NCBI GenBank assembly: GCA_963667175.2
Contig: CAXXXF010000017.1
Location: 39,044-103,043, forward strand
Length of the DNA stretch: 64,000 nucleotides
DNA from: Candidatus Latescibacterota bacterium
Lineage (GTDB): Bacteria; Latescibacterota; UBA2968; GCA-2709665
Direction of reading: 5' to 3'
The notes under the pieces are model-generated. The model ran no database searches. It saw only the letters and a program-made list of their open reading frames with translations, and had not been told where the DNA came from. The translations under genes and the position numbers were made by a program. Shown here piece by piece: positions 57,385 through 58,145 of the stretch (positions are counted from its first letter, which is position 1; every line of letters begins with the position of its first letter).

Positions 57385-58145
57385 GTAGAGTCGGGATGTG
57401 GCGCGGTAGTTTAGGAGTGGCCTGTCTGTTTTCCGCCCCTTTCGTCTGGCGGTGCCTCAATAGCCACTCCATGCCCCGTTTCCACATCCCGCTCGTCGAA
57501 CCGGACGTGCGGATTTCCCGCATCCGGCTCTCCGACGGACGTCGCCTTCAGGCACACGCTGCCCGCGCTGCCCGGACAGCTTCACCTGAAACCCAAGCTT
57601 GTTCCGGAGTCGCCTCGTCTTCTTCTAAAGGAGGTTATAGGCTTGCGCCACTCTCCCGACCGTTGTCCCCTTCGCAAGCACATCCGAAGTCAGGCCCCTT
57701 TCCTCCGCCGGCGTTACCCGGCATCACAGGTACTACGAGCCTGTCCGCCACCCCATCCGGCCCGGCCTGTCCCTCACGGGCGTCCGGTTGGTGAACACAC
57801 ACCACCGGTGGGGCTTCCCGTGTTGCGATGGATCTCCTTTGTATACATGCCGTCGCCAATACCCCGGCGGGACCGTCGGATGCACGCGTTGCTGTCTTTT
57901 TCCAACGACGGCGGCCTTCCCCGGCTGACAATCGGGTCGGCTCCCGCATTAACGTTTTCGAGGCCTGCTCAGCGTTCACTGCGCGTTACGGCCTGCATAC
58001 TCGCGGGGTCGCCTTGCGACCCTTTACACCGGAGGCTTCAGAGATTTCGTTACCTACGTCCCTGCTCCGGTTGCTACCGACTGTAGCAACACTTGTCGGG
58101 TTGGGACTCTCACCCACTGGAGATCCGCGCCTTCCCACGGCGCAC
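57385..58145 (-). mobile_element. ORF-less group II intron, copy 2 (761 nt, about 90% identical to copy 1)
   Basis: GTGCGCC start. Domain V at 57498-57530 is identical to copy 1. It ends CTAC. The EBS1 block at 57923-57932 differs from copy 1. Confidence 0.85.

Follow-up and report, generated by a model that had tools for sequence, protein, structure and literature searches.

Group II introns are defined by, among other properties, the pairing of EBS1 with IBS1 and of EBS3 with IBS3. That related introns, ORF-less derivatives among them, can diverge in these guides is exemplified by TeI3/TeI4 of Thermosynechococcus elongatus (Mohr, Ghanem and Lambowitz 2010; PMC2882425). The TeI3/TeI4 ORF-less derivatives are mobilised in trans by the IEP of a relative (PMC2882425). 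A second point of reference is RmInt1 of Sinorhizobium meliloti, a IIB intron whose IEP carries no endonuclease domain (PMC3123198). ORF-less bacterial introns have been described as rare (Zimmerly and Semper 2015; PMC4424553), and those reviewed from bacteria and archaea reside in genomes or lineages that also hold close IEP-encoding relatives (PMC4424553).

Here, we consider two introns, copy 1 and copy 2, present in the window, by which we mean the whole 64,000-nucleotide (64-kb) stretch of Candidatus Latescibacterota DNA that was analysed. We regard it as very likely that both are ORF-less introns whose EBS1 and EBS3 guides match their own sites, and that both arrived by reverse splicing with a reverse transcriptase/maturase supplied in trans. 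Analogous to TeI3/TeI4, ORF-less derivatives sharing one deletion architecture have spread alongside IEP-encoding relatives, the families carry different EBS sequences, and most sites are IBS-matched while some are poorly matched (PMC2882425). Unlike TeI3/TeI4, the host belongs to the Latescibacterota and not to the cyanobacteria, the IEP of the introns' relatives consists of reverse transcriptase and maturase with no endonuclease domain, and the changes are seen in EBS1 and EBS3 alone, in two copies in the window that are known from their sequence. Guide divergence in ORF-less derivatives is already established (PMC2882425); the host lineage is new. The pattern also resembles targetrons, in which the target is reprogrammed via EBS1 (and EBS2/EBS3) and the remaining ribozyme is kept (PMC3898094). 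Unlike targetrons, the guide variation in the window copies is natural, not designed, and it is read from sequence alone.

Two ORF-less ribozymes of one lineage

The two introns, together with the catalytic elements of copy 2, are positioned as follows.

57385-58145, minus strand: copy 2, complete ORF-less group II intron of 761 nt (Rfam matches, with boundaries read from the sequence)
43470-44227, minus strand: copy 1, complete ORF-less group II intron of 758 nt (Rfam matches)
57498-57530, minus strand: domain V of copy 2 (GAGCCGGAUGCGGGAAAUCCGCACGUCCGGUUC; RF00029 match)
57391, minus strand: putative branch-point A, bulged, in domain VI of copy 2

Both copies are group II intron ribozymes of one ORF-less, non-autonomous lineage with IIB-type exon recognition. 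The Rfam model RF02003 (group-II-D1D4-4, cut-off 49 bits) is matched over its full length in each, at 57981-58119 in copy 2 (100.7 bits) and at 44064-44201 in copy 1 (102.3 bits). The domain V/VI model RF00029 (cut-off 40 bits) scores 40.9 bits at 57454-57532 in copy 2 and 46.4 bits at 43470-43616 in copy 1, where the match reaches the last intron base, 43470. The 5' ends read GUGCG, starting at 58145 in copy 2 and at 44227 in copy 1. Both 3' ends read CUCUAC, with 57385 as the terminus of copy 2. The domain V sequence, GAGCCGG...CCGGUUC, includes the AGC catalytic triad and does not differ between the copies; that of copy 2 also matches the domain V of IEP-encoding relatives exactly. In both copies, domain VI forms a 13-bp helix in which GAGCGGGAUGUGG pairs with CCACAUCCCG-A-CUC, leaving a bulged A 7 nt from the 3' end. 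At only 758 and 761 nt, the introns have no room for a reverse transcriptase gene. Their longest ORFs are spurious, overlapping the ribozyme domains, and a tblastn search of the 64-kb window with the IEP of a full-length relative as query found no reverse transcriptase/maturase (IEP) gene.

The coordinates and sequences given in the initial annotation were correct. It had put the identity of the two copies at about 90%; the value is 92.1% (701/761 positions). With the loop discussed below left out, identity is 93.1%, corresponding to 52 differences (6.9%). With respect to predicted helices, 14 substitutions between the copies fall in 424 paired columns versus 46 in 337 unpaired columns. Of 13 predicted pairs that changed, 8 are still paired; the other 5 are lost in copy 2 as compared with copy 1. 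In the modelled structure, substitutions avoid the predicted helices, indicating constraint on the ribozyme.

Exon-binding positions and their structural setting

The elements through which each copy is matched to its own exons, and the structure that holds EBS1 in copy 2, are these.

57924-57930, minus strand: EBS1 of copy 2 (UGUCAGC), positions 3-9 of the 9-nt loop (57924-57932); all seven bases are Watson-Crick complements of the copy's own 5' exon
58146-58152, minus strand: IBS1 of copy 2 (GCUGACA), the final 7 nt of the 5' exon; exact complement of 57924-57930
44007-44013, minus strand: EBS1 of copy 1 (CAUGGAU), within the loop at 44007-44015; 7/7 Watson-Crick with its own exon
44228-44234, minus strand: IBS1 of copy 1 (AUCCAUG), with which a repeated intergenic motif ends; complement of the EBS1 of copy 1
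57859, minus strand: EBS3 of copy 2, the U in CCGGGGUA[U]UGGCG; pairs with the first 3'-exon base
57384, minus strand: IBS3 of copy 2, the A that opens the 3' exon, as read from the sequence
43942, minus strand: EBS3 of copy 1, A, opposite the IBS3 U at 43469; pairs with the first 3'-exon base
57914-57941, minus strand: predicted EBS1 hairpin of copy 2, GCC-GA-CCCG-[loop 9]-CGGG-GAA-GGC (RNAalifold), nested between two covarying helices
57867-57947, minus strand: three-way junction holding the EBS1 hairpin in copy 2 (covariation)

Within the arrangement GACCCG-[N10]-GGGGAAGG, the 10-nt block is AUUGUCAGCC in copy 2 (57923-57932) and CCCAUGGAUC in copy 1 (44006-44015). The initial annotation had called the two blocks completely different. 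They do diverge, at 8 of 10 positions, but not completely: the tenth base, C, is invariant and stem-paired, and the variable unit is therefore the 9-nt loop, in which 8 of 9 positions differ. Clustering of eight differences in nine loop positions, against 6.9% divergence elsewhere, has a binomial probability of ~4e-9. The annotation's principal observation, that seven nucleotides of the block are the exact complement of the seven preceding the copy's own 5' splice site, holds for each copy. The exon-complementary register, loop positions 3-9, is common to both. Thus, as had been proposed, the variable block is the EBS1 loop, paired 7/7 Watson-Crick with IBS1 in each copy, and both insertions are cognate.

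Complementarity could in principle arise by chance in a hypervariable loop that has no exon-binding role. We hold this to be vanishingly improbable: two 7/7 matches in one register are expected with a frequency of about 4^-14 (~4e-9), and covariation across the family is strong. Specifically, one genome per species was scanned for the invariant hairpin flanks enclosing any 9-nt loop, which yielded at least 112 loci from Latescibacterota, Acidobacteriota, Planctomycetota, Proteobacteria, and other phyla. The 5' splice site of each relative was assigned solely from a GUGYG located 195-215 nt upstream, so the covariation test is not circular. In 77 non-redundant loop/exon combinations among the matches listed, loops matched their own exons at a mean of 5.13 of 7 positions versus 1.91 of 7 for the exons of other introns. 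The correlation of the block with its flanking exon is, in other words, present in further copies. When all columns within the first 300 bases of the intron were screened without bias against exon positions -1 to -25, the top diagonal was that of the loop columns against exon -7 to -1, with 0.84-0.91 of sequences paired and no near competitor. Some relatives are weakly matched: L045, which carries the loop of copy 2, matches at 4/7 and L050 at 2/7, while L113 has four Watson-Crick and two GU pairs and L114 four Watson-Crick pairs and one GU.

Comparative evidence places the block in a loop. In copy 2, the outer helix of the three-way junction joins GCGGGA (57947-57942) with UCCCGC (57872-57867), and a second hairpin lies directly 3' of the EBS1 hairpin. 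Across 65 relatives, the outer helix has the consensus G[C/U][G/A]GGA with UCC[C/U][G/A]C, and this helix and the second hairpin covary, with 96.7% of cells paired and 165 double-change cells. None of 500 shuffles did as well, and pairing collapses when the partner is slid by 1-3 columns in either direction. The 28 bases enclosed by the two covarying helices can fold only locally, that is, as the EBS1 hairpin. The stem of that hairpin was itself fixed as invariant by the search pattern, and the covariation evidence is accordingly that of the flanking helices. RNAalifold, applied to eight ORF-less copies, predicts the EBS1 hairpin independently, with the 9-nt loop unpaired. The hairpin is absent from single-sequence MFE folds of domain I, which pair part of the block, and do so differently in copy 1 and copy 2; we judged such folding unreliable for ribozyme domains of 400 nt and used the comparative tests instead. 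On this modelling, the block lies at the tip of the domain I hairpin that binds the exon, in its terminal loop. Placement of the variable block in a domain I loop and not in a helix, as the initial annotation envisaged, is supported by the flanking-helix covariation and by RNAalifold.

A second guide changes in step with the first. The domain I column that pairs best with the first 3'-exon base is the N in CCGGGGUA[N]UGGCG, which follows the loop at a distance of ~57 nt. Pairing there is Watson-Crick in 23 of 26 non-redundant introns, versus 9.2 expected (permutation P<1e-5), and the pair types are A:U, G:C, and U:A, to which L045 adds C:G. EBS3/IBS3 is a second compensatory difference between the copies, U:A in copy 2 versus A:U in copy 1. 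Thus, of the accompanying EBS2 and EBS3 changes that the annotation had suggested looking for, the EBS3 change exists (U57859:A57384 versus A43942:U43469). EBS2 yielded nothing comparable: no D1 segment covaries with exon positions -8 to -25 (the best candidate reaches 0.56), and the copy 2 site has no obvious IBS2.

Two other candidates for the partner of the first 3'-exon base were rejected. The segment GGCCG[A/U]AACG also has A or U according to the copy, and it pairs with the 3' exon in just 18 of 31 relatives. In IIA-type introns, that partner is delta, the nucleotide immediately 5' of EBS1. Here, the delta position would place C opposite U in copy 1, and its column is not correlated with the 3' exon.

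The 5' exon holds a further conserved element. In 85 related loci, the consensus is T-16 A-15 R-14 C-13 C-12, of which the exon of copy 2 carries T-16 A-15 A-14. We considered whether the TAR at -16 to -14 is the stop codon of an upstream gene and rejected this idea, as only 7 of 36 end an ORF of at least 100 codons. By analogy to T-15 of RmInt1, the distal T-A-R-C-C motif may be a protein-recognised element (PMC3123198). The resemblance to RmInt1 extends to the 7-nt IBS1 at -7 to -1, the lack of an endonuclease domain in the relatives' IEP, the location of EBS3 as a single base 3' of the EBS1 arm (in the coordination loop in RmInt1), and the conserved T in the distal 5' exon (T-15 in RmInt1, within the T-16 A-15 R-14 consensus here) (PMC3123198). 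Unlike the window copies, which have no ORF, RmInt1 is autonomous, and its EBS2-IBS2 pairing is defined (-13 to -9), whereas none was found here (PMC3123198).

Relatives and the origin of the guide alleles

Among the matches listed, the closest relatives reside in Candidatus Latescibacterota MAGs. One such MAG (OZ244744.1), which is 86% identical to the window over the flanking Res and methylase genes, harbours L108, a 1979-nt IEP-encoding intron whose EBS1 is identical to that of copy 1. L108 occupies the same intergenic region in the same orientation as copy 1; its immediate flanks differ. The IEP of L108 is a 441-aa reverse transcriptase plus maturase that has no endonuclease domain. In a tblastn search against plasmids, the best plasmid-borne IEP relatives were 50-62% identical and generically named.

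Copies 1 and 2 (W1 and W2 in the alignments) have in common with L017, L020, and L057 a D3/D4 region and a set of gaps relative to the 1979-nt introns, and L045, L113, and L114 align with these five over their full length. This D3/D4 architecture, common to the ORF-less copies and distinct from that of the full-length introns, defines one non-autonomous lineage. Its members (W1, W2, L017, L020, L057 and its repeats, L045, L113, and L114) carry at least five loop alleles. Their loop-exon match is mostly 6-7 of 7, and just 4 of 7 in L045, L113, and L114.

The alleles found in the window also exist elsewhere. Copy 1 is 99.1% identical to L017, from another Latescibacterota MAG, and the loop allele of copy 2 is present in L045, likewise in another MAG, at an unrelated site. 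Specificity therefore most likely changed before either copy was inserted, and not within the island. On this point the initial annotation, which held that the family had changed target specificity within the island, must be set aside, and the 52 differences outside the loop likewise speak against it. Judging from these relationships, copies 1 and 2 appear to be two older sublineages, each inserted here. No match to the EBS1 allele of copy 2 emerged from a metagenome scan, and a second metagenome scan added only two more ORF-less copies.

How the second allele originated is a separate issue. In a comparison of eight sequences, copy 2 is closest overall to copy 1 (93.5%), yet it has its loop and derived D1 blocks (alignment A3 columns 188-212 and 370-375) in common with L045 and L113. 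In addition, the loop of L045 fits GCUGACA while its exon is GCUAUCC, and the loop of L113 fits GCUAUCA while its exon is GCUGACG; the two loop/exon pairs look swapped. Guide loops may thus have been exchanged between copies by recombination or gene conversion, as opposed to having changed by stepwise mutation in one lineage. We treat such exchange as possible, though rather unlikely, given that incomplete lineage sampling could give the same pattern in a comparison of eight sequences. Exchange would, moreover, bear on the origin of the allele and not on its action.

A different scenario places the change at the insertion site itself: a copy with the ancestral guide could have occupied the copy 2 site, with loop and exon later changing together as splicing was kept. 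Such co-evolution in place would also yield complementarity, and nothing supports it directly. It would require some seven coordinated changes in the loop and as many in the exon, with the EBS3/IBS3 pair in addition, and the copy 2 loop allele occurs at an unrelated site in the L045 genome, so it does not depend on the copy 2 site. We consider this scenario highly improbable.

The explanation that we favour is arrival by reverse splicing. EBS1 and EBS3 differ in allele between the copies, and in each copy they match its own site, which argues for arrival via an RNA that had that guide. In the proposed mechanism, EBS1, the 3' seven bases of the loop, would pair with IBS1 and so set the 5' splice site during splicing, and the same pairing would select the DNA target during reverse splicing. 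EBS3, a single base downstream of the EBS1 arm, would pair with the first 3'-exon base. Most likely, each copy entered its site when an RNA already bearing its guide reverse-spliced there, and a reverse transcriptase/maturase acting in trans would then have made the DNA copy of the intron RNA. Duplication within the island would not have been the route. Consistent with mobilisation in trans, the MAG that holds the ORF-less L045 also holds L046, an intact IEP-encoding relative.

ORF loss is not confined to this lineage. Among the matches listed for this intron class, a domain V could be detected at ~45 loci, and ~20 of these are ORF-less, unlike the rarity conveyed by the review (PMC4424553). 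These counts hint that ORF-less derivatives are common in the class. The ORF-less L033, L059, and L080 (Acidobacteriota) and L029 (Planctomycetota) have deletion junctions that differ from those of the Latescibacterota window copies, which points to independent ORF losses across phyla.

As a separate observation, L017, L020, L045, L113, and L114 contain palindromic inserts of ~30 nt (GCCTGCCTG...CAGGCAGGC) at many different positions (alignment A3 columns 65-94, 159-177, 327-353, 404-436, 476-502, 578-610, and 847-879). Copies 1 and 2 have none. The inserts suggest a small hairpin repeat that invades introns.

Insertion sites, mobility and meaning

Both introns lie in a low-GC defence island that extends from ~40000 to 64000 (GC 0.48-0.55 versus 0.62). 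Its pertinent features are listed below.

40871-40886, plus strand: unoccupied copy of the homing motif of copy 1 (ATCCUGUnnAUCCAUG followed by U)
44845-44860, 59785-59800, 59919-59934, 61272-61287, 61913-61928, 62569-62584, plus strand: further unoccupied copies of the motif
40855-40897, 44829-44871, 59769-59811, 59903-59945, plus strand: intergenic repeat TTTTATCCTGTYCATCCTGTCYATCCATG with a 9-nt period
61256-61298, 61897-61939, 62553-62595, plus strand, and 44228-44260, minus strand: the same intergenic repeat, continued
40913-43441: Res-type helicase
44879-47464: methylase/specificity fusion
52550-53056: M78 peptidase
53768-54715, 54721-55203, 55217-56119: CBASS-like set of SMODS, HORMA, and AAA genes, respectively
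59978-61126: AAA_15/21 ATPase

Copy 1 is situated between the Res and methylase genes, antisense to both, at the end of a repeated motif that consists of ATCCUGUYY twice, then AUCCAUG, and, across the insertion point, U. Of the seven unoccupied copies of this motif, six are perfect IBS1 and IBS3 sites, all within 24 kb. These six empty sites read CATCCATG directly followed by TAAGTT, identical to the ligated exons of copy 1, and the boundaries of copy 1 are thereby confirmed. Copy 2, in sense orientation, has a promoter-like site (58288-58260) on one side and two small minus-strand ORFs on the other. An intron-free allele of its site, in which AAATGAAAGCTGACA would be joined to ACTGCTC, was not found in the metagenome scan or in exact-protein look-ups.

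The intergenic repeat TTTTATCCTGTYCATCCTGTCYATCCATG lies mostly 10-70 nt upstream of defence-island genes, and in related Latescibacterota genomes it is the homing site of the intron with the CAUGGAU guide. We also weighed strand-biased insertion, given that the seven empty motifs are on the plus strand and the occupied one is on the minus strand. We discarded it: related loci have empty copies in both orientations, and GC skew was uninformative.

Several other features of the island deserve mention. A 16-nt direct repeat, CTATTTGCTGYTCCTG, flanks copy 2 on the minus strand at 58166-58181 (-36) and 57345-57360 (+24) and is found at no other place in the window; target-site duplications are not produced by group II introns. 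An AAA_15/AAA_21 ATPase gene (48348-51704) is apparently split into an N-terminal part (48348-48905) and a C-terminal part (50505-51704) by an IS with an rve integrase (48930-50168, minus strand). At L044, a similar IS end abuts a truncated intron copy. Finally, a 300-nt direct repeat, 81% identical, is present within the island at 52143-52442 and 61408-61707.

The empty sites raise the question of whether the copies still move. They could be fossil insertions, in which the complementarity records arrival while the copies themselves are now immobile and possibly unspliced relics. In line with such a fate, the 64-kb window has no IEP, six perfect sites for the guide of copy 1 stand unoccupied nearby, copy 1 is antisense between the Res and methylase genes, and copy 2 has lost five of the pairs predicted for copy 1. 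Against it, domain V shows no difference from its counterpart in IEP-encoding relatives, substitutions avoid the predicted helices, and the 99.1% identity of copy 1 to a copy in another genome suggests recent spread; an IEP could, furthermore, lie elsewhere in the genome, of which the window covers 64 kb. On balance, we think it somewhat doubtful that both copies are relics. This possibility is in any case compatible with arrival by reverse splicing as the explanation of how the pattern arose.

Our understanding of the mechanism of group II introns is unchanged by these findings. What they provide is a clean natural case of guide retargeting, in which EBS1 and EBS3 have changed in step with the target, from a poorly studied phylum. 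They also define exon-binding positions for D1D4-4-type introns, which should be useful for annotation or engineering. We speculate, tentatively, that this class has repeatedly yielded small ORF-less, MITE-like derivatives, in Latescibacterota, Acidobacteriota, and Planctomycetota, that spread between genomes and diversify their targets partly via exchange of EBS1 loop cassettes, with one Latescibacterota guide homing to an intergenic motif of 9-nt period found ahead of many genes in the defence island. In that event, group II introns that lack an ORF would be far commoner in bacteria than reviews say.
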